DNA of 64,000 bases from Enterobacteria phage CHB7. The notes beneath the pieces are model-generated. The model saw only the letters and a list, made by a program, of their open reading frames with translations, ran no database searches and had not been told where the DNA came from. The translations under genes and the position numbers were made by a program. Where the stretch lies: the sequence record MK562504.1; one strand, 5' to 3'. Positions 6,747 through 63,993 of this stretch are shown here, one piece after another. The stretch's first letter is position 1. Each line of letters begins with the position of its first letter.

Positions 6747-6752
6747 AATTTG

Positions 6753-6780
6753 TTGACATACCCTCTCCGGTAGTTATACT
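6753..6780 (+). promoter_or_regulatory. sigma70-like promoter TTGACA-16-TATACT
   Basis: TTGACA 6753-6758, TATACT 6775-6780; a 9 bp inverted repeat (TCCGGTAGT / ACTACCGGA) flanks the -10 and start region. Confidence 0.55.
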
Positions 6781-6830
6781 AGCAATATAAAATTTGATAT
6801 AGGAACTACCGGATGAGTTAGGAGAAGAAA

Positions 6831-7211
6831 ATGAAAAAGATTATGATAGGTGTCATTCTGGCAACTCTGAGTTTTGGTGCATCAGCTATGAAGATGCCTG
6901 AAGCAGACTTTAGCAAGGTCTCTATGGAGGCTTGTCAGATTGTTCGTAAAGTCGTAACAGATGCTGGAGAGTTGACTAAACCGTTATCTTCTCCAACCGT
7001 CATGGAAATGTCTGACCGTATCACTGATTACAATTATCGTGTGATGGCAGACTACTACGAAGCTGTTTCTGATGCTATGGTCACTCAGGATGTTGACTTG
7101 CTTGATGACAAAGACATTGAGAAGGTTGAAGATACTAAACGTGATATGATGGATGAAACGTTTAAAGGTGTTCATTACTTTGTTGAAAAGCGCACTTGTG
7201 TAGGTCTATGA
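6831..7211 (+). CDS. secreted/periplasmic hypothetical protein
   Basis: N-terminal MKKIMIGVILATLSFGASA signal-peptide-like; RBS AGGAGAAGAAA. Confidence 0.55.
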   Translation: MKKIMIGVILATLSFGASAMKMPEADFSKVSMEACQIVRKVVTDAGELTKPLSSPTVMEMSDRITDYNYRVMADYYEAVSDAMVTQDVDLLDDKDIEKVEDTKRDMMDETFKGVHYFVEKRTCVGL

Positions 7212-10786: not shown

Positions 10787-10830
10787 CAAAAAAGGCTCCT
10801 TTTTACGGGAGCCTTAAACTTATTTTTTCT
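10787..10830. terminator. bidirectional rho-independent terminator
   Basis: Hairpin AGGCTCC (10793-10799) / GGAGCCT (10808-10814) flanked by A-run upstream and T-run downstream; sits between convergent genes. Confidence 0.6.
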
Positions 10831-13828: not shown

Positions 13829-13851
13829 AAAGGGGCTAAAAAGCCCCTGCA
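13829..13851 (-). terminator. intergenic hairpin (weak terminator/attenuator)
   Basis: AGGGGCT-AAAA-AGCCCCT hairpin followed by 4 U on the minus strand. Confidence 0.35.
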
Positions 13852-43868: not shown

Positions 43869-43913
43869 GTATTTCGGGGCGAAAGCCCCTTTTTAATTAT
43901 TTAAGGATAGATA

Positions 43914-45640: not shown

Positions 45641-45668
45641 GAGGCTCCTTCGGGAGCCTTTTTTATTT
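45641..45668 (+). terminator. rho-independent terminator
   Basis: AGGCTCC-TTCG-GGAGCCT hairpin followed by TTTTTTATTT. Confidence 0.7.
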
Positions 45669-47689: not shown

Positions 47690-47767
47690 TCTTGACAGCA
47701 GTATACAGATTTCTATATGATGGGGCTACTCAAGGGTAGTCCCTTTTTCATATGCGAGGAAAGTAAA

Positions 47768-48454
47768 ATGAAAGTACAAAAAGGTGATGTAATAATTATC
47801 CATGTCACTAACAGACATAGATTTGCAATAGCTGGTGCTGACACAGTTCATGCAGATGTAACATTTGTCTCAGACACTGGAAGAGTATACTTTAAACCAA
47901 GAGCAAACATGAAATTCATGGTCAACAATGTTGAACAGAGGATTTACGCAGGTCAAGTTTACTCAACTGATGATTTTCACAGAGGTATGTTCACTGGAGC
48001 ATGGAAAGACGCTCTGATGCTAAATCTGAGTGTTGTGCAAGATAAGAAAATTGAAGACTCCAAAGATACAGGCAAAGCAGCTACATTAAGTGTTGAAGAC
48101 ATACCTAAGCATGACTACGGGGCAGCACGTTTCACAACTAAGGCAGATGATAATGATGAAGCTTCAGTAGTGGTTGACAAAGCTAAAGATTTCTTTAAAA
48201 CTTTCTCTTCAGGAAGCCAACATCACCACTATTTCAACCCTCAGACAAAACTTAACTCAATGCTGAAAAGTAAGTGTGAAGATGCTAAGAAGTTGGCTGA
48301 AGAGGTTTACGAGGCTTCTTGTGCAGCAAGTGAAGTGGTTGAAGAGAATCAGTTTGAAAGGGTAATTCGCATTATGATGAAAGCTGGTTTAACACCTTAT
48401 CAAATTGCTGAAGAGATTCAACGTCAGTTCTACAACGCTATGGTGAAAGAATGA
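47768..48454 (+). CDS. hypothetical protein
   Basis: ATG 47768 with GAGGAAA RBS; track ORF 47717-48454 trimmed. Confidence 0.5.
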   Translation: MKVQKGDVIIIHVTNRHRFAIAGADTVHADVTFVSDTGRVYFKPRANMKFMVNNVEQRIYAGQVYSTDDFHRGMFTGAWKDALMLNLSVVQDKKIEDSKDTGKAATLSVEDIPKHDYGAARFTTKADDNDEASVVVDKAKDFFKTFSSGSQHHHYFNPQTKLNSMLKSKCEDAKKLAEEVYEASCAASEVVEENQFERVIRIMMKAGLTPYQIAEEIQRQFYNAMVKE

Positions 48455-49477: not shown

Positions 49478-49529
49478 AATCTTGAAGGGGTTACTTGATA
49501 GCCCCTCTTAACCAAACAAGGTAGCGAAA

Positions 49530-51027: not shown

Positions 51028-51058
51028 ACAGCCCCTTTATTGGGGCTTTTTTATTTTC
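51028..51058 (+). terminator. rho-independent terminator
   Basis: AGCCCC-TTTATT-GGGGCT hairpin followed by TTTTTTATTTT. Confidence 0.7.
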
Positions 51059-51139
51059 TTATAAAATTTGGATTCACTCCGTTCATCTTGGGTCACCATA
51101 TCATGTGATAAAATATCTACCCTTCTTAGTAGCCTACTT

Positions 51140-51400
51140 AATCTTACTCTCTATATAGTTATATAGTACTATATAGTATCTTAGTCCCTTAGCAGTGAGT
51201 CTCTATAGCCCTCTGTATAACCCTTCTAAATAGCCCTCTATAAAGCCCTCTAATCAATCCTCTTCCAAACCTATACAATCACCTTAACCATCTCTTCATA
51301 GCCCCTTAGAAGCCCCTATACCCATCTTAATCTCTAGGTAAATGATAGTACCCTCTATAGGGTGTTCACTAGGTTCTACTAATCCTCTATATAGACTGTT
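51140..51400. repeat. cluster of short TATAG-containing repeats (CTCTATAG / CCCTCTATAA / TATATAGTA)
   Basis: Three tandem TATATAGTA units at 51150-51180; GAGTCTCTATAGCCC, CCCTCTATAAAGCCC, CCCTCTATAGGGTG, CCTCTATATAGACTG further on. Confidence 0.6.
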
Positions 51401-51699
51401 TTAGCTAACTAAACAGGTATCACCTTCTAAGGCTTATCCTACAAGGTCTAACACGGTACTAACAAGGTATCTTATAAGCCTGTATTTACCTGTTTTATAC
51501 AGAATACTATATAGATATTTATGCAATTCTTTAGTATTTCGTTTAGAAATATCTAAACTCATAAATTTTTATAAAATAGAACTGTCAAGTCACTTTTTAG
51601 GTGTTATGAAGGAACTCAAAAATATCTGTCTAGGATGTATATCTGCTTGGTAGCCCTTAACATCGCCCTTACAAGTCCTTTGCAAAATCTTAAAATATC

Positions 51700-52210
51700 A
51701 TTAACAATTTCTTAACAACTCTCTCAAGCTCTTAACATCTCTTCAGAGTTCTTAACAGATTCTTAACAGGACTAACAAGGGTGTAACAAGTTTCTAACAA
51801 GTGCTACATAGTCTTTACAGAATCTTAACAGATTGCTAACAAGTGCTAATTAGTTAATTTTAAAGGGTTATTTTGTTAAGATAATTAACAAGTTCCTAAC
51901 AAGTGTTTAACCTTTTTAACAAGCTGTTAACATGGTCACTATCTCTGGTCTTATCGTTCCCTTACCTTCTTAGTGATTCTCTAAACATCCTCTTAAAAGC
52001 TCTCTATAGCTCTATACAGCCTCTTTATAGCCCCTTGTAAGGTAACTATAGCCCAAGTAACTACAAAGGGTTTTATAGGGCTTTCTAGGGGCTTTAAAGG
52101 GTATGCCAAAGAGTCTAACAAGAGTTTAACAAGGTCTTAACAATGATTTAACATACCCCTAACAAGGGTAACTATGCAGGAGTTGTTAAGAATTTGTTAA
52201 GAAAATGTTA
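51700..52210. repeat. iteron-like array of more than 20 TAACA(A/G) words
   Basis: Direct copies at about 10-12 bp spacing over 51701-51924 (CTTAACA, CTAACAAG, GTAACAAG); second cluster 52105-52155; inverted copies (TTGTTAAG) 52173-52205. Confidence 0.7.
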
Positions 52211-52225
52211 AGGGGGCTAGCATAT

Positions 52226-52291
52226 ACGTAACTTTTAAGCCCCTTTTACGTAACTTCATAGCCCCTTTTACGTAACTTTTAAGCTACTTTT
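52226..52291. repeat. 3 x 22 bp tandem repeat (ACGTAACTTTTAAGCCCCTTTT family)
   Basis: Units 52226-52247, 52248-52269, 52270-52291 with 2-4 substitutions each. Confidence 0.7.
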
Positions 52292-52327
52292 AAGCCCCTA
52301 TAACATACTTTTTAGTGACTATCAATA

Positions 52328-52670
52328 GGATTCGATAGAGTCCTATCTTATAGGGGATTGTTTAGATATTCACAAGATACTAGCCAGCATATAAGCTTAT
52401 ACCCTTATAAGATTCTTTTAAGGCTCTAGGAAGCTCTATAAAGGGCTTTAAAGAGTGGGTTAATATGATTGGTTAAGTTGAGATGATAAGCCGTTATAGA
52501 GCGTTATAGAGCGTTTAAGGGATTGCCCTTCCCTTTCGGGTTATGGGCTTATATTTAAGGGATTGGTAACAATACCAATTAGTTGATTTGATAAGAGAAT
52601 ATAGAGTAAACTATAGAGTTATTGTTCTAAATGTCTGGAAAGGGATTGTATAAGGATTCGATAGAGTCCT
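52328..52670. repeat. dispersed 17 bp repeat GGATTCGATAGAGTCCT (2 copies)
   Basis: Copies at 52328-52344 and 52654-52670; near-palindromic core. Confidence 0.6.
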
Positions 52671-52684
52671 GTCTCATAGACGTT

Positions 52685-52707
52685 AAAAAGCCCCATTTAA
52701 GGGGCTG
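52685..52707 (-). terminator. rho-independent terminator ending the small-gene array
   Basis: Minus-sense AGCCCC-TTAAAT-GGGGCT followed by TTTTT. Confidence 0.6.
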
Positions 52708-52747
52708 TTAAGGTATCTGGGGCTATTTGCCCCGATGCGGCGTCTTA

Positions 52748-52999
52748 TTAGTCATTGAAGCCGTTTTTGTTGTAGTAAAGAGTGATAATAGAATCACCCC
52801 AATAGTAAGTTGTAACGCCGTATTTTAAGACTTCCTGTTTTGTTTCTTTCCAGAAATTTTCTGACGGTTGATAGTCCTGAATAGTTGCTTTCAGACACAT
52901 TTCAATCATTCCGAAAGCATCACCAGTGCCTACCATGTCAAATTTAACATCTAAAACGTGAAAACCAAAGTTGTTAACAGTTGCGCGGATAGTTGCCAT
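52748..52999 (-). CDS. array gene 1, hypothetical
   Basis: 83 aa; preceded by type A cassette (GNRA hairpin + GGAGA RBS). Confidence 0.5.
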   Translation of the reverse strand: MATIRATVNNFGFHVLDVKFDMVGTGDAFGMIEMCLKATIQDYQPSENFWKETKQEVLKYGVTTYYWGDSIITLYYNKNGFND

Positions 53000-53064
53000 T
53001 TTTAGAATCTCCAGTTTAGGATTTTTGTTTAGTGGGGAAGTTTCCCTCCCCGTTGATAAGTACT

Positions 53065-53592
53065 TTACAGACTTTCGATTAACTGGTCAAGCCCTTTTTG
53101 CATATCTTTTAAGGATTTTTCATGTAATTTTATCATGTCGTTGATTGCTTGCCCTAACTGAAGAGAATAATCACCGTCTTTTGTTTCACTTGTATAGATG
53201 TTCTCTACATCATACAGATTAAAAGGATTGCACCCTGTACCCATTGCCTGAGTCCCAAAAGCCAACGGCATGATATACAAATTAAGAGACTTTATAGAGC
53301 GCTCATAAGCCATTTTATAGCGGTTAATCTCTTCTTTTGATGACTTGATGCAATGCTCGTAAAGTTCTGCAACTATAGCCATAAAATCCGGTAAAATCAT
53401 TGCAACTGCTTTCATAAAATTGTTTGCTGTTACAAGTTTTACATTTGGGCGATGAATGTAATATTTTTTATCACTTCCCTTTGTGATGACTGCAAAGAGT
53501 TTAGCATTACAACGGAATTCGAAAGTGTCTTTTACTGGTTTGGTCATTACGTCTTTTGAGCGGATAGTGTTAATTGCAGTGAACTTATTCAT
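53065..53592 (-). CDS. array gene 2, hypothetical
   Basis: 175 aa; stop codon embedded in conserved GTAAAGTACTT word. Confidence 0.5.
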   Translation of the reverse strand: MNKFTAINTIRSKDVMTKPVKDTFEFRCNAKLFAVITKGSDKKYYIHRPNVKLVTANNFMKAVAMILPDFMAIVAELYEHCIKSSKEEINRYKMAYERSIKSLNLYIMPLAFGTQAMGTGCNPFNLYDVENIYTSETKDGDYSLQLGQAINDMIKLHEKSLKDMQKGLDQLIESL

Positions 53593-53596
53593 CTTG

Positions 53597-53692
53597 ATTC
53601 TCCAGTTTAGGATTTTTGTTTAATGGGGAAGTTTCCCTCCCCGTTGATAAGTACTTTACTTGTTTTGATTTGCCTTTGCAAGCTTTTTATTG
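53597..53692. repeat. about 95 bp near-identical dispersed repeat (type A cassette + flank), copy 1
   Basis: Near-identical to 57052-57147; includes the 3' end of array gene 3. Confidence 0.7.
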
Positions 53693-53793
53693 AAAAAATA
53701 ATCTTGAATCTCACTTGCTATCAGCAGACCAAAAGGAATAACCACTGATACAATCATGCCACACAGAATAGGGTTTTTAATTACTTCCATCAT
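53656..53793 (-). CDS. array gene 3, small membrane peptide (45 aa)
   Basis: ATG with cassette RBS; hydrophobic ILCGMIVSVVIPFGLLIA; below track length cut-off. Confidence 0.4.
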   Translation of the reverse strand: MMEVIKNPILCGMIVSVVIPFGLLIASEIQDYFFNKKLAKANQNK

Positions 53794-53991
53794 TTTAGAA
53801 TCTCCAGTTTAGGAAAGCGTTATTGCTTGAGATAAACTATATAGACTTTGATGAGTCATTGCAAGTAATTCTTAAGCTTATCTATAAAGAATCTTTTAAG
53901 TGATTCCTTTTAGATAAACCCCCTCGAACAAAGTTACCAATGTCAAGGGGTATTGTCAAGATAATTTTTAATGTTTTTTGTAAGTCATTGA

Positions 53992-54333
53992 TTAGCTTAT
54001 AAAGATTTTTTCAGGCTTGACATAGGTTAATCTCTGTGATTTTAGTAAGTCACTCCAGATTAATCCCGCTATGTGACTATAACCCTTTTCACGTAGTTGT
54101 TTCATTGTCTCCGCTCTAGTTTCAAAGCGGCTTGCGTAGTATTCAGTGTTAAGGGTTGTTTTGTTTCCTTCGTTATCTGTATGCACAATTTGCATCACTT
54201 GAAAGGGGCTTACATCTTCTCCCCTGTTCCATTGCTCAAAGTACTTGAGACACTGCATAGGTTTCATTTTGTCGTTAACTTGGGTAGACCATGACGAATT
54301 TTCTTTATCAGTGATAATTGTTACATAGGCCAT
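53992..54333 (-). CDS. array gene 4, hypothetical
   Basis: 113 aa. Confidence 0.5.
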   Translation of the reverse strand: MAYVTIITDKENSSWSTQVNDKMKPMQCLKYFEQWNRGEDVSPFQVMQIVHTDNEGNKTTLNTEYYASRFETRAETMKQLREKGYSHIAGLIWSDLLKSQRLTYVKPEKIFIS

Positions 54334-54384
54334 TTTCAGATTCTCCAGTTTAGGATTGTTGGTAAAGCTCTTTATCTGGGGCTT

Positions 54385-54413
54385 AAGATACTAGCTTTTA
54401 AACCCCATGTAAA
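54385..54413 (-). promoter_or_regulatory. cassette type B promoter (TTTACA-17-TATCTT) overlapping a 9 bp stem hairpin
   Basis: Minus-sense TTTACA 54408-54413, -10 54385-54390; hairpin GGGGTTTAA/TTAAGCCCC spans spacer and -10. Confidence 0.5.
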
Positions 54414-54418
54414 GCACT

Positions 54419-54616
54419 TTAATAAATTCTATCCATCAGATTATTCACGGCCATAATTGCATTATCTTTGAAGTGTGGATGACTGCTATTCTGTGAGAAT
54501 AGTATTTCTCCATTGTATACTATTTTTAGGTCTATCTTTGAACCTTCCATGTTAAGGTTACACTCTACACCTTTTAAACACCACAAGGTAGAAAGTTTTT
54601 GCATCAGTGATAACAT
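54419..54616 (-). CDS. array gene 5, hypothetical
   Basis: 65 aa. Confidence 0.45.
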   Translation of the reverse strand: MLSLMQKLSTLWCLKGVECNLNMEGSKIDLKIVYNGEILFSQNSSHPHFKDNAIMAVNNLMDRIY

Positions 54617-54666
54617 TTTAGATTCTCCAGTTTAGGATTGTTGGTAAAGCTCTTTATCTGGGGCTT

Positions 54667-54695
54667 ATCTTATCTAACTATAAACCCCATGTAAA
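54667..54695 (-). promoter_or_regulatory. cassette type B promoter (TTTACA-17-TAAGAT)
   Basis: Minus-sense TTTACA 54690-54695, TAAGAT 54667-54672; stem GGGGTTTAT/ATAAGCCCC keeps pairing through base changes relative to the 54385 copy. Confidence 0.5.
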
Positions 54696-54707
54696 GCACT
54701 TTATTAG

Positions 54708-54929
54708 TTATTTGTAGTAATAATATGTAAACTCATTTATCAGGCTTCCATCCTCATCATTATACTGCTTATGACTAGCCAGATAACCGCCATTAGCTAG
54801 AATTTCATCAATCAACTTTTTAGCGTCATCGTTGGGAATCCTAACAGGTTTACTAAACGGCTGTAAATAGGTACGACGAACATTTGAGAATTTAAAATCA
54901 ATGGTTTTTACGTTAAGAACTTGCAACAT
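54708..54929 (-). CDS. array gene 6, hypothetical
   Basis: ATG 54927-54929 placed directly after the cassette RBS; track ORF extends from TTG at 55007. Confidence 0.45.
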   Translation of the reverse strand: MLQVLNVKTIDFKFSNVRRTYLQPFSKPVRIPNDDAKKLIDEILANGGYLASHKQYNDEDGSLINEFTYYYYK

Positions 54930-55007
54930 TTTTTGAATCTCCAGTTTAGGATTGTTGGGATGTTTCCCGTTGATGAATACTTTACTTTCTTGCGTTTTCA
55001 GTGCCAA

Positions 55008-55238
55008 CTACTTTTCTATAAGAATCTCATATTCACCATTCACACTATCAAAGTAAATACCTTCATCATCTTCTGACTTATAGTAACATTGGATATCATC
55101 CGATGTTGGGTAGTCTTGCCTTGCTATCTGACAGGCAACAATAGCATTATTTTCGCTACCTGTAAACTCTTCTAAACCTTTAAAGTCACATTGTGAACCA
55201 TTGCAGATAGATAAGATAAGATAGATTGTTGTAAGCAT
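55008..55238 (-). CDS. array gene 7, small secreted/lipoprotein-like protein
   Basis: N-terminal MLTTIYLILSIC hydrophobic leader; 76 aa. Confidence 0.45.
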   Translation of the reverse strand: MLTTIYLILSICNGSQCDFKGLEEFTGSENNAIVACQIARQDYPTSDDIQCYYKSEDDEGIYFDSVNGEYEILIEK

Positions 55239-55301
55239 CTTTTAAGCCTCTTGTAAGCCCCTATGCGGGGCTTTTCTAGTGAACTGGTATGATTTTATGG
55301 T

Positions 55302-55859
55302 TTATGCTGTTAAGTCGCTTATAGCCGTTTCTGTTACGTTGAATTGCATTGTGTCAAAGATATCACAATATACATTGCTCATCTCATCGCTACGTTGGAT
55401 TATTGTCACAATGTTGCGTAATTCATCCGGTATATAACCCAAGTTCCTATTATTCAGGTTAGGGACAAAGAAAGGCGCATACATAGCATTAAATTCAGTT
55501 GTGTAAACCTTTTTAATCCATTCTTTATCGAAATACTCTGTAAAGCTTGCTACGTCGCTCATATTTTCACAACTCCAATCATCTTGCAACTCTTCGTCTG
55601 GTATGTCAAGCTCTAAAATAACTATTTTTTGCGACTTCATTTGATAAGCCGCTGTGACACTTGCACTATCAAGAGCATTTTTAATACCCTCATCCGTGAC
55701 TTGTTCGTTGTCCATTTCTTCAACGTCATAGAACTTGCTTACAGGGTAGACATAAAAACATCCATCCATATCTGAGCAATTCCAAGCGCCTGATGGCTTA
55801 TCGCCACCATTTAACAGGTTTACAAAGTTTTCTTGAGTAGTACCGTGAAAGCATTTCAT
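55302..55859 (-). CDS. array gene 8, hypothetical
   Basis: 185 aa. Confidence 0.5.
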   Translation of the reverse strand: MKCFHGTTQENFVNLLNGGDKPSGAWNCSDMDGCFYVYPVSKFYDVEEMDNEQVTDEGIKNALDSASVTAAYQMKSQKIVILELDIPDEELQDDWSCENMSDVASFTEYFDKEWIKKVYTTEFNAMYAPFFVPNLNNRNLGYIPDELRNIVTIIQRSDEMSNVYCDIFDTMQFNVTETAISDLTA

Positions 55860-55909
55860 TTTAGATTCTCCAGTTTAGGATTGTTGGTAAAATTCTTTAT
55901 CTGGGGCTT

Positions 55910-55938
55910 ATCTTATCGAACTATAAACCCCATGTAAA
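55910..55938 (-). promoter_or_regulatory. cassette type B promoter (TTTACA-17-TAAGAT)
   Basis: Minus-sense TTTACA 55933-55938, TAAGAT 55910-55915. Confidence 0.5.
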
Positions 55939-55943
55939 GCATT

Positions 55944-56192
55944 TTATTTAGTTTTCTTTGTAAAGATTAGTTTAACTGCAACAGTGGGCAACTCTTCAAT
56001 ACTTGTGAACAAAGTCACCTTTTGAGTCTTGACATTATAGCCATTTTTTGCAGCGTATGCCGTAAACCGATTCACAATATAGCTGTAAGTTTTTGCCGTA
56101 TTATCTGGCATATGGTATAAATAGGGCTTGCCTAAATTTTGTGGTTGTGTTAATAGTCGGCAAGTGTCTGGAACGTTTAAGTAATTCAGCAT
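55944..56192 (-). CDS. array gene 9, hypothetical
   Basis: 82 aa. Confidence 0.45.
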   Translation of the reverse strand: MLNYLNVPDTCRLLTQPQNLGKPYLYHMPDNTAKTYSYIVNRFTAYAAKNGYNVKTQKVTLFTSIEELPTVAVKLIFTKKTK

Positions 56193-56280
56193 TTTAGAAT
56201 CTCCAGTTTAGGATTTTTGGGGCTTGCTTACCTCGTTGATGAGTACTTTAATCTATCTAAAAATCATTGTCAAACTATTT

Positions 56281-56682
56281 TTAAAGTTCTGCGTAAATTA
56301 CATCACAGATATCTTGAAAATCTTGCTTTGTCAAGTTGCGCTGTAACCAAGTTGCGAAAAAGTCAGCAATTGCAAAATTTGCATCGAACTCAATAGATAG
56401 CCACACTTTAACAGCAAATCGGAACATTTTCAAGTCTAGTTCTTTATTCATAACTTTTGATTTGGCTAACATGTCAGCCATTTCATATTGTGCGCCATCA
56501 AGTGTACTACCATTTGCAACGTTTGCAAGTGAATTTTTAATGTTTTCTACATCTAAAATCACTCCCTGAATTTTACCGATAATGTTATGCAATGTTTCAT
56601 CAGGTGCGGTTGATGTAATGGCATTGATGCGGTTTACAGTCAAACGTGCTTTCAGGATTGCAACTTCTTTATTGTTAGCCAT
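56281..56682 (-). CDS. array gene 10, hypothetical
   Basis: 133 aa. Confidence 0.5.
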   Translation of the reverse strand: MANNKEVAILKARLTVNRINAITSTAPDETLHNIIGKIQGVILDVENIKNSLANVANGSTLDGAQYEMADMLAKSKVMNKELDLKMFRFAVKVWLSIEFDANFAIADFFATWLQRNLTKQDFQDICDVIYAEL

Positions 56683-56735
56683 TTTTAATACTCCAGTTTA
56701 GGTTGGTTGTTTGGTAAATCTCTTTATCTGGGGCT

Positions 56736-56764
56736 ATCTTATCAGCCTGATAACCCCATGTAAA
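56736..56764 (-). promoter_or_regulatory. cassette type B promoter (TTTACA-17-TAAGAT)
   Basis: Minus-sense TTTACA 56759-56764, TAAGAT 56736-56741. Confidence 0.5.
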
Positions 56765-56772
56765 GCAATTTA

Positions 56773-57045
56773 TTAAACTAAGTGTAATTTTTTACCGTTA
56801 ACAATGATGTAACTTACGCCGCTATTACTATAAACATCTTGATAAATTCTGCGTAACTTGCCCAAATAACGTACTTTCCAAGACGTTGGAATCTTTTTTC
56901 CATAGCCCGTAGCAGTTTTTTGAAGCCCTGCCAGTTGCCAATCTAAGATATGTTGTTCTGCTTGCAACTCTTCAAAGTTTAAAACCCCGTCAATGTAAAC
57001 TTTTAAGGTAACGTTTAAGGTACGGCCATTGTTAGTGGTATACAT
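56773..57045 (-). CDS. array gene 11, hypothetical
   Basis: 90 aa. Confidence 0.45.
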   Translation of the reverse strand: MYTTNNGRTLNVTLKVYIDGVLNFEELQAEQHILDWQLAGLQKTATGYGKKIPTSWKVRYLGKLRRIYQDVYSNSGVSYIIVNGKKLHLV

Positions 57046-57051
57046 GTTTTG

Positions 57052-57147
57052 ATTCTCCAGTTTAGGATTTTTGTTTAGTGGGGAAGTTTCCCTCCCCGTT
57101 GATAAGTACTTTACTTGTTTTGATTTGCCTTTGCAAGCTTATTTTTA
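57052..57147. repeat. about 95 bp near-identical dispersed repeat (type A cassette + flank), copy 2
   Basis: Matches 53597-53692, including a remnant of the array gene 3 3' end. Confidence 0.7.
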
Positions 57148-57474
57148 AGAATTTTTTCTTTTGTTTATTTCTTGTGCAACAACTGGATAATAGTCTGTTA
57201 AATCAGCCACTTGCAATGACTCTAACAGTACATTATAATCATTGATTAGTTCAAAATCACCAGATAAAACATCATTGATTTGGTATGTTTTAGCCTTAAA
57301 TCTGAAGCTCATCTCTAAACGTTGCAATTGTGTACCATCTAAACGCTCTAAAAAGCCCCTGACAAGGTTTATTTTAACTTCCTTAGTGGTTATCTCATTT
57401 ACTTTGTTTAGCGCCTTATAAGCCTTGTAAAGCGCTACAATTGAGACCAGCAAAGCAACACCAGAGATTAACAT
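57145..57474 (-). CDS. array gene 12, membrane-anchored hypothetical
   Basis: N-terminal MLISGVALLVSIVALY hydrophobic helix. Confidence 0.5.
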   Translation of the reverse strand: MLISGVALLVSIVALYKAYKALNKVNEITTKEVKINLVRGFLERLDGTQLQRLEMSFRFKAKTYQINDVLSGDFELINDYNVLLESLQVADLTDYYPVVAQEINKRKNS

Positions 57475-57764
57475 TATGATTTCCCCTTGTGAAATAATTT
57501 ACCAGTATGACTAATTTCAAAAGAGTCTATCATGTCTTTTGTAGACTTAACAGAACTTTTATTAGTGTTATCATAAATATCAACCTGAAGCAAAGGTTTT
57601 TTGTATTCTTTACAAAAGTTCCATACACAAATAACAACTTCTTTACCATTGATTTTTCCATGATACCATTCCGTAATATCATGAGTTCGGCGCATAGATT
57701 CTATGAAGTTGATATCTTGTAATAGTTTACTGAGTTTAGAACGTACATGAGCGGCAATAAACAT
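57474..57764 (-). CDS. array gene 13, hypothetical
   Basis: 96 aa; stop overlaps gene 12 start. Confidence 0.5.
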   Translation of the reverse strand: MFIAAHVRSKLSKLLQDINFIESMRRTHDITEWYHGKINGKEVVICVWNFCKEYKKPLLQVDIYDNTNKSSVKSTKDMIDSFEISHTGKLFHKGKS

Positions 57765-57805
57765 TTTAGAATCTCCAGTTTAGGAAAGCTCTTTATCTGG
57801 GGCTT

Positions 57806-57835
57806 ATGGTATCAAGCTTTTAAGCCCCTTGTAAA
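57806..57835 (-). promoter_or_regulatory. cassette type B promoter variant (TTTACA-18-TACCAT)
   Basis: Minus-sense TTTACA 57830-57835, TACCAT 57806-57811. Confidence 0.4.
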
Positions 57836-57840
57836 GTACT

Positions 57841-58002
57841 TTATGAAATAATTTTTATAACTTCTTTTAGTGTGATGTTTTCGCCATTTGTCAAGGCTAA
57901 ACATTTGTTACCAGTGCATGACAAGTAACTAAATGAGACTTTACCAGTTTTAGAAAATCCGTCAAGCCCTTTGTAAGTAATGATAGAGTTTTCTTTTATC
58001 AT
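57841..58002 (-). CDS. array gene 14, small hypothetical (53 aa)
   Basis: ATG 58000-58002; stop directly follows GTAAAGTACT word; below track cut-off. Confidence 0.35.
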   Translation of the reverse strand: MIKENSIITYKGLDGFSKTGKVSFSYLSCTGNKCLALTNGENITLKEVIKIIS

Positions 58003-58013
58003 TTGTCAAGCCC

Positions 58014-58220
58014 TTAAACATCATAATAATAAATTGCAGTATGTCTAATATGCTTTCTTGTGTGAATTGTCAAGTAACAATCTGATTTGATTGATGTATT
58101 TACATACGTATCATAATCTTTCTCTGATATACGTTGCCACACATCACAAATTAGCATATAAAAACGACGATGTTTTGTTTCAGTATTATCTACAATCATT
58201 AATTCACGTTGATATAACAT
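58014..58220 (-). CDS. array gene 15, hypothetical
   Basis: 68 aa; first gene after the array leader. Confidence 0.45.
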   Translation of the reverse strand: MLYQRELMIVDNTETKHRRFYMLICDVWQRISEKDYDTYVNTSIKSDCYLTIHTRKHIRHTAIYYYDV

Positions 58221-58418
58221 TTTTGAATCTCCAGTTTAGGAAGTGGGCTTGATTGCCCGTCTGATGCAAATACTAAATAACTTTGTTTTGCAGGTCAAGC
58301 AAATTTTTAAAAATATTTTCAGGAATTGCCAGAGAGGAACGGGCACACGACTACCACAAAACATAGCACAAATCAAGAATTATTTTTCAGTTCTCTACAG
58401 ATTTTTCTCTTGACTTTT

Positions 58419-58454
58419 GGGGAGAGGGGGAGTAAGAGGGGGAGAGGGGCAGGG
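58419..58454 (+). repeat. G-tract (GGGG-N3-GGGGG-N6-GGGGG-N3-GGGG-N2-GGG)
   Basis: Five G-runs within 36 nt in an otherwise AT-rich leader. Confidence 0.6.
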
Positions 58455-58471
58455 ATGGCTCTATCTACCTA

Positions 58472-58647
58472 CCTGCACAATTCTAAAATGATTTTTCTTG
58501 CCCGACACTCGCCGGGACTGCACGTTTTGAAAATGAAAAAACTCTTTGGAGTCCACCTGCACAAATTGAAAATGAATTTTCCCTTTGGAGTTCAAAATTT
58601 TCTCTACAGATTTCTGTCCAGACTTTTACCTGCACAATTCTAAAATA
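58472..58647. repeat. 3 dispersed direct repeats CCTGCACAATTCTAAAAT(G/A)
   Basis: Copies at 58472-58490, 58556-58574, 58629-58647; contain the reverse complement of the cassette word CATTTTAGAAT. Confidence 0.6.
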
Positions 58648-58690
58648 AAAAAGCCCTCCTTACCTGAAAAACTTACCAGATAAGAAAGGC
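58641..58690 (-). terminator. rho-independent terminator (10 bp stem, 18 nt loop)
   Basis: Minus-sense GCCTTTCTTA / TAAGGAGGGC stem followed by TTTTTTATTTT. Confidence 0.55.
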
Positions 58691-58721
58691 TTAGCCTATT
58701 GTGAATATGCTACAGAGTCTC

Positions 58722-59504
58722 TTAGTTCTTTGCAGCTAAGAACTTGATATTAGCAATGCCTACAATTGCTTCAGCATCTTTCTCATTTGCTGCAAGAATG
58801 TACACATCAGGTTCACTTCCAAATGTCACTGCACGTTGCATACTACCTTTCAACGGCGGGGTAACTTGAGCGTTACTTAGAGACATTCTCTCAACCGGAG
58901 GGTTACTCCGATGTACCTTGTTCTTACGATGCCTGAAGAGGGTAACTCCATCTTCGTTGACAACGGCTACACCTGCAAAGTATTGTGGCTCACTGTGATT
59001 ACCCCATGTTGACAGAGTATTAAACATTGCCTCTTCAAACACGTAAAGGTAAACATCAACATCTTTCAGGATGTGATTCATAATCACCACAACAGCTTTC
59101 GGGTCAAGTCCACCAATCCCTGCACCAATCATTGGAAGACCAACTTTCTTCAGTTGATTTACTTTGCAGTACTGGTTAAGACTCAACAAAGCACTCTCAA
59201 GAGCATCGTAACGGGCATCTTTACCAGTCTTCAACTGAGTATACAGGTTAGCAATACGTCCTTGTTTAAGACGTGCTACAGAGAGTTTACCAAGCAGTTT
59301 CTGGCAAGGTTTATGCTCTCTTCCTCCTGCTACACGGTAGACTTCAGCATCGGTTTCATAGGCTTTTGGGTAGCCTTTAGAAATCTTATCAGCAATACCT
59401 GCACCCATCAGGTTCATGCAGTTACAACCGTGACCGATGATATCAAACTTACCTTTTTCAAAGTCTGCGAAGATATCACCTTTGATGACTTTTACAATAC
59501 CCAT
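58722..59504 (-). CDS. macro-domain protein (TARG1/DarG-like ADP-ribosyl hydrolase fold) with C-terminal unknown domain
   Basis: N-terminal KGDIFADF...DIIGHGCNCMNLMGAGIA and later GLPMIGAGIGGLDP match macro-domain signatures; 260 aa. Confidence 0.65.
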   Translation of the reverse strand: MGIVKVIKGDIFADFEKGKFDIIGHGCNCMNLMGAGIADKISKGYPKAYETDAEVYRVAGGREHKPCQKLLGKLSVARLKQGRIANLYTQLKTGKDARYDALESALLSLNQYCKVNQLKKVGLPMIGAGIGGLDPKAVVVIMNHILKDVDVYLYVFEEAMFNTLSTWGNHSEPQYFAGVAVVNEDGVTLFRHRKNKVHRSNPPVERMSLSNAQVTPPLKGSMQRAVTFGSEPDVYILAANEKDAEAIVGIANIKFLAAKN

Positions 59505-60978: not shown

Positions 60979-61001
60979 GAAAAAGGCTCCCGAAGGAGCC
61001 T
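60979..61001 (-). terminator. rho-independent terminator
   Basis: Minus-sense AGGCTCC-TTCG-GGAGCCT followed by TTTTTCGTTTT. Confidence 0.65.
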
Positions 61002-61489: not shown

Positions 61490-62185
61490 TTAGTGTTTGA
61501 TAAGCATTGTGTTAATGTCTGGAAGGATTCGTTTAACCTTCTCAACATTCCTTACTGTATCTTCTATAAAGCATACTACCTCATAGTACGGAAGAATGCA
61601 AGACTGAATCATACGAACTTTCAAACTTTCTGCACTGATTCTGTTTGAACCAAAACCACGCATAAAAAGCATGTAGTCAGTCACAATATGTTTGTCAATA
61701 AACAAATGAGTTGGTACACGTTGAGACTCACCACGGGCAGTTAAAACACCAATTGCAGCACTCTTATGAATGCCTGAGATGATGTTAAAGATGTACGTAG
61801 GTTGAGCATCAACTGACTCAATCAAGTTTGTATACTGTGATAAAGTGCCATCTTCCAGATACGTTGAATTTGTTGGCTTATCAAACTTAGTGAGAACACC
61901 ATCAATATCTGTTAAAACCATTGGCTTTTTCATATCAAGGTCTTTTGCAACCAAGATTAAGCTGTCACGTTTAACGGCTACTGACTTACCTGTTTGAAGG
62001 TCTGTACAGAGAACTGTTTCAGCAGGTGAATGAAAATCTTTGAAGTCACACTCAACAGCCCTTGCAGTATCTGCAAAATCCTCTTTCATAAGGTCTGTCC
62101 AGCTTGCAGCACTGATATCTATAGCCAGAGGATTGATATCGTAAGCGTGACAAAATACCTTATCCAATTGTTTTAATTCGCTCAT
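61490..62185 (-). CDS. HAD-family phosphatase-like protein
   Basis: MVLTDIDGVLTKF matches HAD motif I (DxDG); ATG at 62183-62185 preferred over track TTG start. Confidence 0.5.
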   Translation of the reverse strand: MSELKQLDKVFCHAYDINPLAIDISAASWTDLMKEDFADTARAVECDFKDFHSPAETVLCTDLQTGKSVAVKRDSLILVAKDLDMKKPMVLTDIDGVLTKFDKPTNSTYLEDGTLSQYTNLIESVDAQPTYIFNIISGIHKSAAIGVLTARGESQRVPTHLFIDKHIVTDYMLFMRGFGSNRISAESLKVRMIQSCILPYYEVVCFIEDTVRNVEKVKRILPDINTMLIKH

Positions 62186-62711
62186 GTTTAACCTTTTTGA
62201 TGTTTGTTGCAAACTCACATTGAGCAAGCACCTTCATGTTATTGTACACATCTTGAGAGTATTGTCTAGCTTTTGGAATGCGGTATGAGTATCCTGCATT
62301 ATATGAAGCTAAGACACGCTGTAAAGAGTATTTCCCATTAGGATTACCATGAACCTTAGTCCAGAACTGAAGCTCTTTGTGTGTCTCCTTTGCAGCATAA
62401 TCGAAGTCTCTGATAAGTTTCTTCTTAGCTACGTTTGGGCTAACTTTGTTACGCTTTACAACAGTCTTCAAGTGATTCTGGAACAACCCATAATCGTGAG
62501 TCTTTTTATTTTCAAGACGAAGACCTAACTCTGACTCTTGTAAGGCTATAGCGGCTAAGGTTAATCCCCAACCTTTACCCATCTCTTTCTCACCGTAGTG
62601 ATAAGCTTTAAGCATGTTTGTTTTCTGACTGATGGATAATTCTGGACAGTCTGAAGCGACTGCCAAATGTGCTGTTAAGAATAAGCACAAACCTAAAATG
62701 AACTTCTTCAT
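62160..62711 (-). CDS. secreted lytic transglycosylase (SLT-domain) protein
   Basis: Signal peptide; catalytic-type QESELG and later YGLFQ, ASYNAG motifs; strong AGGAGA RBS. Confidence 0.65.
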   Translation of the reverse strand: MKKFILGLCLFLTAHLAVASDCPELSISQKTNMLKAYHYGEKEMGKGWGLTLAAIALQESELGLRLENKKTHDYGLFQNHLKTVVKRNKVSPNVAKKKLIRDFDYAAKETHKELQFWTKVHGNPNGKYSLQRVLASYNAGYSYRIPKARQYSQDVYNNMKVLAQCEFATNIKKVKHERIKTIG

Positions 62712-62770: not shown

Positions 62771-62797
62771 ATAAAAAAGGCTGCCGAAGCAGCCCTT
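62771..62797 (-). terminator. rho-independent terminator
   Basis: Minus-sense GGGCTGC-TTCG-GCAGCCT followed by TTTTTTATTTG. Confidence 0.7.
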
Positions 62798-62811
62798 TAA
62801 GAATTTACTTA

Positions 62812-63921
62812 TTAGATTTCACGTTTACGTTGAGAAATCAGTTCACCAGCAGTGCCTACAACAACATGCAGTGCTTCAGATTTGCCATCCCACTCTTTGA
62901 CAACCTGACGCTGACCATTCACGATTGCTGCAACTTCATAACGAGAAGCTCGCATTTTCATATCTTGATAGTCAGTTGGTACAGATACAACGTCTCGTGG
63001 ATGTACACGAACTTTCAGGATAGTATCACCAGAGAAGCTACGTACATAATCCCAAGCACCAACATGCAGACCTTGAGAGCAAGTTACTGTACGGTCATTA
63101 TCAACCATCCAGCGTGGCATCTCTACAACGTTACCCAAATCATTAGGAACTTTGCAGGTACGGGAGTCAAACAGCTTACCACCACGAGTTGTAACTTTCT
63201 TCCAACCGATGATATAACCTTCTTCATCAATCTCAACGTCAAGGTGAGATACAAAGCCCCAAAGTTGTTCTACAGAATCTTTGGATGGGTTTTCCATCAG
63301 TTTTTCGAAGAATGCAACCAGACGTTTAAAGCCATCATCACCAACTTTCATCATATCCAGAATACGGTCTACCAGAGTGGAACGCATTTGAACAGCACCG
63401 TAGTACAGGTTATCGCCTTTGATGGTGATTGCACCCTGAGTGAAGTTCTCGATAGACTTACGAATGTTCATCAGTTCGAAAGCTTTCTTGTACTCACCAC
63501 CTACAACAGCCATCACGATTTCTTTGTAGTTTGGATGGGTAGACTCAACGATTTCAGAATCTGCACCGAAAGTCATGATAACAGAATCACCAGTAATCAT
63601 GTACTCAATCTGGTTACCGTTCTGCATTGCTTCGTGCAGTTGGTTAACAGGTTCTTTCTTCACTGCCTCTTTAACAGCCTTGGCAACTGGCTTAGTAGCC
63701 GTTTTCTTAGCAGACTTTGCAATCTGTTTCAGAGTCTGTTTAGCTGGCTTGGAAGTTGCTTTCTTAGCACCTTTCAGGGTTGCTTCGTGACGTTCTACAG
63801 CACGACCAACGGAACGAGTAGAAGTATTATACTTCATTGCAATGGCAGTTTTGGTCAGTTTACCTTCCTGAACCAGTGCATAGATTTCTGCGTCGATTTG
63901 TGCTTTAGTTTTAGTAGTCAT
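62812..63921 (-). CDS. hypothetical protein with N-terminal HTH-like segment and Lys/Ala-rich linker
   Basis: 369 aa; MKYNTSTRSVGRAVERH then KKATSKPAKQ... basic linker. Confidence 0.5.
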   Translation of the reverse strand: MTTKTKAQIDAEIYALVQEGKLTKTAIAMKYNTSTRSVGRAVERHEATLKGAKKATSKPAKQTLKQIAKSAKKTATKPVAKAVKEAVKKEPVNQLHEAMQNGNQIEYMITGDSVIMTFGADSEIVESTHPNYKEIVMAVVGGEYKKAFELMNIRKSIENFTQGAITIKGDNLYYGAVQMRSTLVDRILDMMKVGDDGFKRLVAFFEKLMENPSKDSVEQLWGFVSHLDVEIDEEGYIIGWKKVTTRGGKLFDSRTCKVPNDLGNVVEMPRWMVDNDRTVTCSQGLHVGAWDYVRSFSGDTILKVRVHPRDVVSVPTDYQDMKMRASRYEVAAIVNGQRQVVKEWDGKSEALHVVVGTAGELISQRKREI

Positions 63922-63964
63922 CTTATTACTCTCTCTTGTTAGTTAATATTACTTAGTGGTTCGT

Positions 63965-63993
63965 ATTCTAAGGGGCTTTGCAGCCCCTGTCAA
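63965..63993 (-). promoter_or_regulatory. sigma70 consensus-like promoter (TTGACA-17-TAGAAT) with hairpin-forming spacer
   Basis: Minus-sense TTGACA 63988-63993, TAGAAT 63965-63970; spacer GGGGCTGCAAAGCCCCT is a perfect hairpin. Confidence 0.6.

Follow-up and report, generated by a model that had tools for sequence, protein, structure and literature searches.

Composite promoter and stem-loop cassettes resembling PeSLs at the rIIA-rIIB junction and in the early region of a Felix O1-like phage

The stretch of DNA analyzed (the window) comprises 64,000 nucleotides of Enterobacteria phage CHB7 (MK562504.1), a Felix O1-like phage of the genus Suspvirus, subfamily Ounavirinae, that is ∼99% identical to phage SUSP2. 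The rIIA stop codon is at 64001-64003, just beyond the window end, and rIIB, which the promoter predicted here would serve, is encoded at 62812..63921 on the minus strand. The 79-nt gap between the two genes is wholly taken up by the site under study and holds the rIIA stop, an AT-rich stretch, a -35 hexamer, a hairpin, a -10 hexamer, a Shine-Dalgarno sequence and the ATG, the leader reading GAT-TAA-AAATAGT followed by TTGACA, AAGAGAGAG and ATG. The minus strand from 63993 to 63965 is TTGACA-GGGGCTGCAAAGCCCCT-TAGAAT with a spacer of 17 nt. The -35 hexamer TTGACA (63988..63993, minus strand) starts 7 nt past the rIIA stop codon, the -10 hexamer TAGAAT occupies 63965..63970 (minus strand), and the Shine-Dalgarno region AAGAGAGAG with the rIIB ATG lies at 63919..63937 (minus strand). 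The hexamers match the consensus at 11 of 12 positions and constitute the top promoter-like site within 50-64 kb. Transcription of rIIB is predicted to start at approximately 63957-63961.

The GGGGCTGCAAAGCCCCT spacer together with the final A of the -35 hexamer forms the hairpin AGGGGCT-GCAA-AGCCCCT (63971..63988, minus strand), the seven perfect pairs of which occupy the spacer. This result bears out the first-pass annotation, which had described the spacer of the TTGACA-17-TAGAAT promoter as a perfect hairpin, and places the promoter on the minus strand. The RNA form has a folding energy of -14.6 kcal/mol (z = -3.7) and the GCAA loop is of the GNRA type on the sense strand. Only TT separates the stem from TAGAAT, and the tail 3' of the hairpin, UUAGAAUA, contains no U-tract. 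The hairpin is not among the entries in the available portion of the published Felix O1 terminator table (PMC3185647).

The hexamers and stem at the rIIB site were kept in 29 of 30 related IMG/VR contigs, one of the kept set having TTGACT as the -35, and the loop and flanks were variable. The -10 in relatives is TAGAAT or TAAAAT, and a constant stem carries GAAA, TTGA or TCAA as the loop. The homologous site is annotated 'promoter' in the record of phage ASO1A. A 'terminator' annotation lying under a match in phage Barry was found to be unrelated, located inside rIIA on the opposite strand. The same junction in Kolesnikvirus has a different hairpin, (G)GGGCTG-GAAA-CAGCCC, without -35 and -10 hexamers, and that in Hafnia phage Zyzzx has TTGACA-17-TCTAAT with the hairpin AAGTGGTC-TAATAA-GGCCACTT over the -10. 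Three unrelated stems were therefore found at one position across genera. Since the hexamers are missing from Kolesnikvirus and the Zyzzx hairpin lies over the -10, the junction hairpin is not tied to spacer geometry, and the comparison of sequences indicates that it is independent of the promoter. The rIIB stem is invariant within Felixounavirus and Suspvirus, so that covariation for this hairpin derives from the between-genus comparison only. Two contigs (L013 and L031) have a sense-strand C.A mismatch in the rIIB hairpin. The Felixounavirus loops TTGA and TCAA are no special tetraloops and flip repeatedly from one to the other, with at least 6-7 changes and zero intermediates, a DNA-level trace that bears on mutation or recombination and not on regulation. 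A search of 64 loci for other promoters with a hairpin strictly inside the spacer returned the rIIB site and otherwise weak, probably chance cases.

Hairpins with the same stem recur in the window. The pattern GGGGY-N(3-25)-RCCCC occurred 12 times versus 0.58±0.75 expected from 200 dinucleotide-preserving shuffles. Promoter-like sites with an embedded hairpin (at least 6 pairs, at least 4 of them G-C) numbered 7 versus 0.42±0.59 in shuffles, corresponding to about three independent promoter-hairpin cases since five of the seven are paralogous copies of one cassette. The proposal that a single stem family is shared between promoters and terminators is upheld, the family exceeding the shuffle expectation and being conserved across the phage subfamily. 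The terminators noted previously at 51028, 52685 and 13829 were located at 51030-51047, 52689-52706 and 13831-13848. The first is a canonical terminator, AGCCCC-TTTATT-GGGGCT followed by seven T residues (51030..51047, plus strand), at the end of a plus-strand operon. The minus-strand early operon ends with two hairpins (52689..52733, minus strand), GGGGC-AAATA-GCCCC and then AGCCCC-TTAAAT-GGGGCT (52689-52706, minus strand) with five T residues, that resemble terminator t23 of Felix O1 in stem and position (PMC3185647). The third, AGGGGCT-TTTT-AGCCCCT followed by TTT (13831..13848, minus strand), lies between two co-directional late genes and has 7-bp arms identical to those of the rIIB hairpin. 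The first-pass annotation had overlooked two further plus-strand members and the composite at 47692-47748 (plus strand) described below. One is the terminator GGGGC-GAAA-GCCCC followed by five T residues (43876..43889, plus strand) between plus-strand genes; the other is the hairpin GGGGTTA-CTTGA-TAGCCCC (49487..49505, plus strand) with its G.U wobble on the plus (sense) strand. Another intergenic hairpin, AAGCCCC-GCATA-GGGGCTT (55255..55273, minus strand), has neither promoter hexamers nor a T-tract. A G+C-rich hairpin with a U-rich tract was found at 51030, 43876 and 47722; the 52689 hairpin also has one by sequence reading (T5 tail) and was absent from the terminator scan. That scan reported neither the rIIB hairpin nor those of the type B cassettes described next, and since U-tracts are absent the promoter-embedded hairpins are poor intrinsic terminators by canonical rules. 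Scanning 51-64 kb against Rfam at E≤1 returned three chance-level hits and no known RNA family.

Five minus-strand cassettes, termed type B, with -35 starts at 54413, 54695, 55938, 56764 and 57835, follow the pattern TTTACA-N-GGGG(T/C)TTA...TAAGAT-AAGCCCC-AGATAAAG, in which the hairpin spans most of the spacer and the -10, in agreement with the earlier description of a GGGG.../...CCCC hairpin over these elements. The hexamers, TTTACA-17/18-TAAGAT and variants, match the consensus at 9 of 12 positions. The embedded promoter is TTTACA-17-TATCTT in the copy at 54363..54421, TTTACA-17-TAAGAT in those at 54645..54703 (RNA fold -23 kcal/mol, z = -4.7), 55888..55946 and 56715..56772, the last having the stem variant GGGGTTAT/ATAGCCCC, and TTTACA-18-TACCAT in that at 57784..57843, where the comparison with SUSP2 also places the junction of a three-gene indel (all minus strand). 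The complete type B hairpin is ∼60 nt long with 20 pairs arranged as 6 bp, a 1x1 mismatch, 5 bp, a 2x2 internal loop and 9-10 bp closed by a loop of 11-14 nt, and in all five copies the -35 is part of a stem and the -10 falls within the loop. The flanks read TAATAAAGTGC-TTTACA upstream and CCTAAACTGGAG and then ATG downstream, and the tail, AGAUAAAG, is devoid of a U-tract.

Pairing was evaluated at 14 pair positions in 69 distinct type B cassettes with a script that anchored the pairing at the ends, since MAFFT misregistered the innermost pairs of two stem variants. The cells comprised 825 Watson-Crick, 111 G.U, 4 A.C and 26 other combinations, counts that overstate the number of independent events because they come from orthologues and paralogues that share ancestry. 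Compensatory changes were present in the stems (CG in 34, UG in 34 and UA in 1; UA in 48 and AU in 21; AU in 46 and UA in 17). In alignment A1, 93.8% of cells paired versus 31-58% with the partners slid, and pair 9-61 was GC in 31, UA in 10 and AU in 1. The strand carrying the wobble tracks the operon, being the plus strand at 49487 and the minus strand in the minus-strand operon. GNRA and UUCG tetraloops are RNA-specific stabilizers, and loops of both kinds always read correctly on the sense strand. Folding energies for the sense versus antisense strand were -14.6 vs -12.6 for rIIB and -23 vs -20, -26.3 vs -26.7 and -18.4 vs -25 for three type B copies, the antisense strand folding about as well because other pairs compensate. 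The large excess of G.U over A.C and the compensatory changes in the 69 type B copies argue that the hairpin is most likely selected in sense-strand RNA reading through from the upstream gene, where it would act as an attenuator or a 3'-end hairpin.

The three type A cassettes, also on the minus strand, differ in hairpin placement. The copy at 57080..57136 has TTGCAA-17-TAAAGT and, ∼10 nt past the -10, the hairpin GGGGAGG-GAAA-CTTCCCC; copies 2 and 3 are at 53625..53681 and 53034..53090, the latter with TTGACC-17-TAAAGT. RNA initiated by a type A cassette would carry the hairpin in its 5' end. An independent composite on the plus strand (47692..47748) consists of TTGACA-18-TATGAT, an 11 of 12 match, abutting the terminator GGGGCTACT-CAAG-GGTAGTCCC-TTTTT, with the -10 preceding the hairpin and the predicted start inside the 5' arm. 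Mooglevirus-like contigs keep this composite with a covarying stem, GGGAGCTATC-GAAA-GGT(A/G)GTTCCC, and terminator t29 of Felix O1 is a closely similar hairpin (PMC3185647).

Promoter-early stem-loops (PeSLs) have been described in the T4-like phages RB49, phi1, PST and nt-1 (Arbiol et al. 2010, PMC2839356; Comeau et al. 2014, PMC4122927). The stem-loops have polyG/polyC tracts and G-T pairs and are mostly located between the -35 and -10 or over the -10, the published definition also admitting a position over the -35 or shortly after the -10, and one of them lowered lacZ expression approximately as much as the rrnB T1 terminator (PMC2839356). The order of elements is shared with the sites reported here: an AT-rich stretch that includes the upstream stop codon, -35 and -10 hexamers of sigma-70 type, a G-run/C-run stem-loop with G-T pairs, a Shine-Dalgarno sequence and ATG. 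Both the rIIB and type B sites have intergenic, sigma-70-like predicted hexamers 16-18 nt apart, an AT-rich upstream stretch with a stop, and a Shine-Dalgarno sequence and start codon on the 3' side; the G-run/C-run stem-loop is in the spacer (rIIB), over the spacer and -10 (type B) or after the -10 (type A and 47692). Also shared are repeat units of ∼100 nt grouped in a mosaic region among small genes without assigned function, and indels between close relatives with junctions in cassettes. Repeats in a hyperplastic region among small genes are a property of the type A and B copies; the rIIB copy differs in lying between two conserved core genes. Further differences are the host lineage, Ounavirinae instead of T4-like, and the far longer, three-helix hairpin of type B, in which the initial transcribed sequence is the pairing partner of the -35 region. 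In PeSLs the stem-loop lowers downstream expression, and mini-circles are released when the cassettes recombine. Our literature search found no paper reporting PeSLs in Ounavirinae; the genome papers on Felix O1-like phages that the search covered give promoters and terminators separately and leave composites unmentioned. The rIIB, type A and type B sites look like the PeSLs of T4-like phages and not like a cruciform-controlled promoter.

A second point of comparison is offered by bacteria, in which weak terminators that overlap a promoter become more efficient when polymerase is bound at that promoter, according to a preprint by Fletcher et al. (bioRxiv 10.64898/2026.08.19.745784). Transcript 3' ends at those terminators lie within ∼35 bp, and typically 8-11 bp, upstream of a start site for transcription on the same strand. 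Likenesses to the motif are the overlap of stem-loop DNA with the -35 and spacer of the next same-strand promoter, the position between functionally related genes in tandem, rIIA and rIIB in this phage, and the weaker hairpins. The rIIB hairpin shares the last base of the -35, fills the spacer and lies between same-strand rIIA and rIIB. The bacterial motif differs in having a T-tract directly upstream of the -10: the rIIB site has TT only, type B has no T-tract and the order is reversed at 47692.

The explanation that we consider probable is a composite, PeSL-type cassette between the two genes, in which one stretch of DNA would serve both as promoter and, once transcribed, as RNA hairpin. As double-stranded DNA, TTGACA and TAGAAT would constitute a host sigma-70 early promoter for rIIB, the transcript of which would begin 3' of the hairpin and, with the start located downstream, would not contain it. 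In RNA reading through from rIIA the spacer would fold into a stable G4C/GC4 hairpin with a GNRA cap that punctuates the upstream message, RNA polymerase pausing and partly terminating there, probably aided by polymerase on the overlapping promoter, and 3' ends made at the hairpin would stay hairpin-protected. Types A and B and the 47692 composite may represent the same idea with other hairpin positions relative to the hexamers. The recurrent GGGGCT/AGCCCC stem could have two sources, copying of cassettes by recombination and a general preference in an AT-rich genome for stems that pair a G run with a C run. The literature search found no mapped RNA 5' or 3' ends for Ounavirinae or Felix O1-like phages, and promoter activity, the start position and the role of the hairpin in attenuation versus stabilization are inferred.

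A role in RNA processing or stability only, as an RNase III cut site or a block to 3' exonuclease without real termination, is unlikely. Cistrons would be separated and upstream messages protected, a function fitting the ∼60-nt three-helix type B hairpin especially, which provides about two helical turns of interrupted duplex without a U-tract. The early genes of phage T7 have RNase III processing hairpins in intercistronic regions; type B resembles these sites in general shape and in that a long interrupted hairpin occupies every intercistronic gap of an early polycistronic message, although the T7 sites are without promoters. Sense-strand wobble fits processing as well as it fits termination, and for type A hairpins, located in the 5' end of their own transcript, a stability role is the natural reading. 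Against processing as the sole function, the rIIB hairpin, at only 7 bp, falls short of what RNase III requires, a canonical U-tract is present in the 47692 member, and the PeSL stem-loop that was tested cut downstream expression like a strong terminator (PMC2839356).

Readings at the level of DNA fare less well. The first-pass annotation had proposed that a hairpin or cruciform extruded from the spacer could make the promoter supercoiling-sensitive or bind a structure-specific factor. The N4 virion RNA polymerase promoters, in which a template-strand DNA hairpin with a 3-nt loop and supercoiling are required, offer a precedent and likewise have a short inverted repeat within the promoter. The rIIB palindrome is perfect, so that both DNA strands would fold equally (-7.7 kcal/mol each), and the repeated TTGA/TCAA loop flips suggest that the repeat takes part in DNA-level events. 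The proposal is nonetheless unsupported and we regard it as very unlikely. A G.T pair on the sense strand is a C.A mismatch on the other and a cruciform needs both strands folded, whereas G.T outnumbers A.C by 111 to 4 and leaves the type B antisense strand with C.A mismatches; the GNRA and UUCG loops are RNA features, so that covariation and loops alike point to RNA. In addition, Kolesnikvirus has the hairpin without a promoter and its position relative to the hexamers differs by lineage. Judged by established cruciform energetics, a 7-bp arm with a 4-nt loop is probably too short to extrude at physiological superhelicity, and for type B, with its large loop and 7-bp arms, extrusion would be energetically very unlikely. 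The hexamers conform to the sigma-70 consensus, and in contrast to N4 with its phage-encoded virion polymerase, Felix O1-like phages have no RNA polymerase of their own according to the Felix O1 genome paper (PMC3185647). Bacterial promoter-terminator coupling is reported to be independent of supercoiling (bioRxiv 10.64898/2026.08.19.745784). It is highly improbable that a dimeric DNA-binding regulator, of phage or host origin, uses the palindrome as an operator to shut off early promoters, even though an inverted repeat in the spacer is in the classic operator position, the arms AGGGGCT/AGCCCCT are identical at 13831 and 63971, and terminator palindromes may double as transcription-factor sites according to that preprint. 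Half-site spacing from 4 to ∼16 nt across the family is unlike one dimer geometry, many members are plain terminators without a promoter, stems are wholly different between genera, and substitutions preserve pairing via G.U intermediates instead of a fixed half-site sequence. An overlap without function, arising as a compact genome packs hairpin and promoter together and duplicates the cassette with its stem, is scarcely plausible: paralogous copies account for five of the seven hairpins embedded in promoters and intergenic regions are short (52-100 nt), but three independent composites (rIIB, type B and 47692) keep the overlap across genera while the stems change, and published experiments with PeSLs and promoter-coupled terminators show functional interplay. 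We also considered the conserved CUGGAG leaders as targets of a RegB-like endoribonuclease and dropped this reading, Pfam giving only a weak, sub-threshold SLT (lysin-type) hit. The idea had arisen from the label 'endoribonuclease' on the gene after rIIB in phage mistaenkt.

The composite PeSL-type cassette adds no new principle, since the PeSL kind is already known, and extends it from T4-like phages to an unrelated myovirus subfamily, whose members are in wide use for the typing and biocontrol of Salmonella and E. coli. In the Felix O1 genome paper it was left open whether passage past many terminators reflects read-through or downstream secondary promoters (PMC3185647), and the finding of promoters built onto hairpins points to secondary promoters. 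More tentatively, Ounavirinae may possess their own PeSL-like mobile regulatory cassettes with promoter and RNA structure interlocked, the -35 being part of a stem whose opposite strand is the initial transcribed sequence, and the -10 falling within the loop. If so, read-through RNA would form a ∼20-bp hairpin and be terminated or processed nearly where the promoter's transcripts start, every early gene would have an identical 5' leader in any upstream context, and the cassette would be a natural insulator and a recombination site for gene shuffling. The more than 80 natural cassette variants with covarying stems provide a sequence-defined set for tests of promoter-terminator coupling, and the cassettes could be useful as compact insulating parts.

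The region from 53.0 to 58.2 kb contains at least nine type A and B copies and 12 conserved leaders among ORFs of 65-185 aa. It is ≤84% identical in most relatives, and rIIB is 98.7% identical to that of SUSP2. SUSP2 gp093-095 are missing from the window, a three-gene indel of 1.4 kb with its junction within the cassette at 57844-57773. Intergenic breakpoints are also expected from selection for intact genes. The junction cassette is 100% identical to a SUSP2 cassette from another slot, and identity across it falls from 96.6% to 79.9%.

Comparison with Escherichia phage SUSP2 (Ounavirinae, Suspvirus), which is 98.7% identical over the last 1.5 kb of the window, placed the window end at the rIIA/rIIB junction of that phage with both genes on the minus strand; 282 Felix O1-like phage records match the same 1.5 kb. 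By this comparison rIIB occupies 63921..62812 and the stop codon of rIIA is expected at 64001-64003, past the window end. The window has 24 tRNA genes and its genes are laid out in long co-directional blocks. The minus strand from 64000 to 63919 reads AAATAG-TTGACA-GGGGCTGCAAAGCCCCT-TAGAAT-ACGAACC...AAGAGAGAGTAATAAG-ATG, confirming the TTGACA-17-TAGAAT promoter with a hairpin spacer described for the window end by the first-pass annotation. The site matched 11 of 12 consensus positions and ranked first among 54 promoter-like sites in a consensus scan of 50-64 kb. The hairpin AGGGGCT/GCAA/AGCCCCT (63988..63971) comprises the spacer and the final A of the -35 hexamer, with a folding energy of -14.6 kcal/mol for the RNA (z = -3.7) and -7.7 kcal/mol for each of the DNA strands. 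For the gene that follows rIIB (62160-62711, minus strand), the record of phage mistaenkt has the label "endoribonuclease" and other records have "putative lysin"; since Pfam gave only a weak, sub-threshold match to SLT transglycosylase (E = 5e-4), the former label looks unsupported.

The GGGGCT/AGCCCC hairpin family is far from chance. The pattern GGGGY-N(3-25)-RCCCC was found 12 times in the window versus 0.58 ± 0.75 in shuffled sequences, and 7 promoter-like sites contained an embedded G+C-rich hairpin versus 0.42 ± 0.59 expected, five of the seven hairpins being paralogues of one another. The members named earlier were all located: five minus-strand type B promoters, with -35 hexamers starting at 54413, 54695, 55938, 56764 and 57835, and, at 51030, 52689 and 13831, three hairpins of the terminator type. 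Stem reuse is a genome-wide habit not peculiar to this family, since a second terminator stem family is also reused at 45642-45659 (+), 60984-61001 (-), 10792-10815 (+) and 62775-62798 (-). Its stems are AGGCTCC-TTCG-GGAGCCT (twice), one longer-loop relative and GGGCTGC-TTCG-GCAGCC, the UUCG tetraloop always being on the sense strand. On the minus strand at 55138-55166, a promoter-like TTTACA-17-TATTGT with an 11-pair hairpin (ACAGGTAGC...GCCTGT) lies within the listed ORF 55238..55008; either the promoter is internal or the ORF is miscalled.

A pattern scan of viral contigs identified 19 more loci with type B cassettes, in which the hairpin encloses most of the spacer and the -10 hexamer, for a set of 82 distinct cassettes including those of the window. 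RNA folding revealed that the entire cassette, beyond the GGGG/CCCC core, is a single extended hairpin with interruptions, TAAAGT.CTTTA..(N)GGGGYTWW - loop with -10 - WWRGCCCC(A)..TAAAG.GCTTTA, with energies of -18 to -26 kcal/mol for the window copies. The 20 named pairs were 93.8% paired in an alignment of 49 sequences, compared with 31-58% when the partners were slid by 1-3 columns, and the double changes and covariation score exceeded those of all 500 shuffles, a lenient control given that the sequences are related. End-anchored counts over 69 distinct copies gave C-G in 34, U.G in 34 and U-A in 1 at stem position 5, U-A in 48 and A-U in 21 at position 7, and A-U in 46 and U-A in 17 at position 8; overall, 825 pair cells were Watson-Crick, 111 G.U, 4 A.C and 26 other. 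As G.U and A.C are equally likely a priori as products of a Watson-Crick pair transition, the observed ratio of 111:4 indicates that selection acts on the sense strand. The G.U pairs of plus-strand operon hairpins with wobble (49487 and 47722) are on the plus strand, and 4-nt GNRA or UUCG loops are correct on the sense strand in all instances (63971, GCAA; 43876 and type A, GAAA; 45642, 60984 and 62779, UUCG). Folding energies of the two strands were similar when compared directly. The ribosome-binding region of the small early ORFs is as stereotyped as their promoters: between 53009 and 58240 on the minus strand, 12 copies of the invariant translation leader CCTAAACTGGAG, 11 of them within one 45-nt repeat family, precede these ORFs, each followed by 8-10 nt and ATG.

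The rIIA-rIIB junction was compared in 30 IMG/VR contigs encoding rIIB, and 29 retained the -35, hairpin and -10 together, with variation in the loop and downstream leader. The spacer is 17 nt long in Suspvirus and Mooglevirus-like contigs, which read TTGACA-GGGGCT-G(C/A)AA-AGCCCC-T-TA(G/A)AAT, and 18 nt long in Felixounavirus contigs, which read TTGACA-A-GGGGCT-(TTGA/TCAA)-AGCCCC-T-TAGAAT; the record of phage ASO1A marks its homologous 30 nt as "promoter". The distant relatives are the telling ones. In the Kolesnikvirus phages SB18, Hena2 and Fifi106 the junction has a different stem, (G)GGGCTG-GAAA-CAGCCC(T), again closed by a GNRA loop, and neither a -35 nor a -10 hexamer is recognisable near it. 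Contig L030 and Hafnia phage Zyzzx combine TTGACA-17-TCTAAT with AAGTGGTC-TAATAA-GGCCACTT, a third hairpin that covers the -10 and whose T.G wobble falls on the sense strand. Thus, what stays constant is the hairpin at the rIIA 3' end, around which a promoter is wrapped in some lineages in varying register, an arrangement hard to reconcile with a role dependent on spacer geometry. The Felixounavirus loop (22 contigs, loci L004-L032), homologous to window 63977-63982 and ~60 nt upstream of rIIB, is TTGA or TCAA, exact reverse complements with no intermediates among the 22 contigs, and neighbour-joining trees of the flanking sequence require at least 6-7 switches. Exact loop flips are what small inversions between the arms of a perfect inverted repeat typically produce, and the pattern suggests either recurrent inversion of this kind or frequent recombination.

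An independent composite is located at 47692-47748 on the plus strand, where TTGACA-18-TATGAT (11/12) is followed immediately by GGGGCTACT-CAAG-GGTAGTCCC-TTTTT, and 3' of this terminator by a Shine-Dalgarno sequence and the ATG at 47768. The predicted transcription start is within the 5' arm of the hairpin, and the full terminator would therefore be present only in transcripts from upstream. Mooglevirus-like contigs keep the promoter and have the stem replaced by GGGAGCTATC-GAAA-GGT(A/G)GTTCCC-TTTTTT. A closely similar hairpin appears as terminator t29 in the Felix O1 genome paper (PMC3185647). A mechanical ORF call starts at the ATG at 47717 within the composite; the true start is likely at 47768, an in-frame ATG with GAGGAAAG before it.

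The window cassettes match almost point for point the published definition of the promoter-early stem-loop (PeSL) of the T4-like phages RB49 and phi1. Both have an upstream stop codon within an AT-rich stretch, sigma-70-like -35 and -10 sequences, a stem-loop with polyG/polyC tracts and G-T pairs that mostly lies between the two boxes or covers the -10, and a 3' end with a Shine-Dalgarno sequence and ATG, and both are clustered in hyperplastic regions and involved in indels. Hyperplasticity is evident in the window: the best records had at most ~84% identity over ~80% of the length of window 52.5-58.8 kb, versus 98.7% for rIIB to SUSP2. Colinearity with the SUSP2 locus (96.6%) ends within a cassette at 57785, where SUSP2 has three extra cassette-flanked genes, gp093-095, and the alignment resumes at 79.9%; the junction cassette of the window has a 100% match in SUSP2, in a cassette at another slot. 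The early small-gene region (52500-58800) is mosaic relative to SUSP2, with a two-to-three-gene block replaced (window 55213-54355 versus SUSP2 locus 6382-6841). The rIIB feature is a PeSL-type composite, in a phage lineage new for such elements, that combines a predicted promoter with an RNA hairpin; literature searches turned up no account of these cassettes in Felix O1-like phages. How transcription gets past the many terminators was a question explicitly left unanswered in the Felix O1 genome paper (PMC3185647).

In the most likely mechanism, the hexamers would recruit host sigma-70 polymerase and the DNA would work as a promoter, the RNA of which would escape the hairpin by starting beyond or inside it in all classes except type A. 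The complete hairpin would be present in RNA arriving from the upstream gene, and would pause and partly terminate that transcription, so that the 3' end left there is protected. On their own, hairpins embedded in this way are expected to be weak, since they have no U-tracts. Attenuation of upstream transcription is plausible based on the finding that a PeSL stem-loop cloned alone lowered lacZ expression to an extent similar to rrnB T1 (PMC2839356), and on a report that in bacteria a polymerase at an overlapping promoter raises termination at weak coupled terminators, an effect that is proximity-dependent and, as a section heading of that preprint states, not supercoiling-dependent (bioRxiv 10.64898/2026.08.19.745784). 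The main rival to attenuation is that the hairpins direct RNase III processing or block exonucleases, which applies chiefly to the 20-pair type B structure.

Models in which the hairpin acts as DNA are disfavoured, whether as a cruciform or target of a structure-specific factor, as the first-pass annotation had suggested, or as a dimeric operator. Recurrent loop inversion in Felixounavirus is the sole DNA-level trace, and concerns mutation or recombination, not regulation. Five observations count against both models: the wobble is strand-asymmetric, the loops are of RNA type, half-site spacing varies from 4 to ~16 nt, stems are completely replaced from one genus to another, and the Kolesnikvirus hairpin has no promoter. 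The earlier observation that the stem family is reused holds, but its cruciform mechanism finds no support. An N4-like reading of the hairpin promoters is opposed by the absence of an RNA polymerase of its own from this phage family (PMC3185647).

Two non-coding stretches adjoin the early genes. The ~1.6 kb at 51050-52700, between the terminators of a plus-strand operon (51030) and a minus-strand operon (52689), has no ORFs and is full of short direct-repeat arrays, including TAACA-type units of ~11 nt (51722-51932) and units containing AGCCC(C)T (51200-51261 and 52222-52301); the stretch might function as an origin or as an array for protein binding. The ~500 nt at 58250-58720, between early genes, contain 3-5 copies of ACCTGCACAAWT..AAAATGA (58471, 58555 and 58628, with related copies at 58518 and 58557) and, on the minus strand, the unusual C-rich tract CCCTGCCCCTCTCCCCCTCTTACTCCCCCTCTCCCC, and are closed by a 17-pair terminator at 58651-58692.
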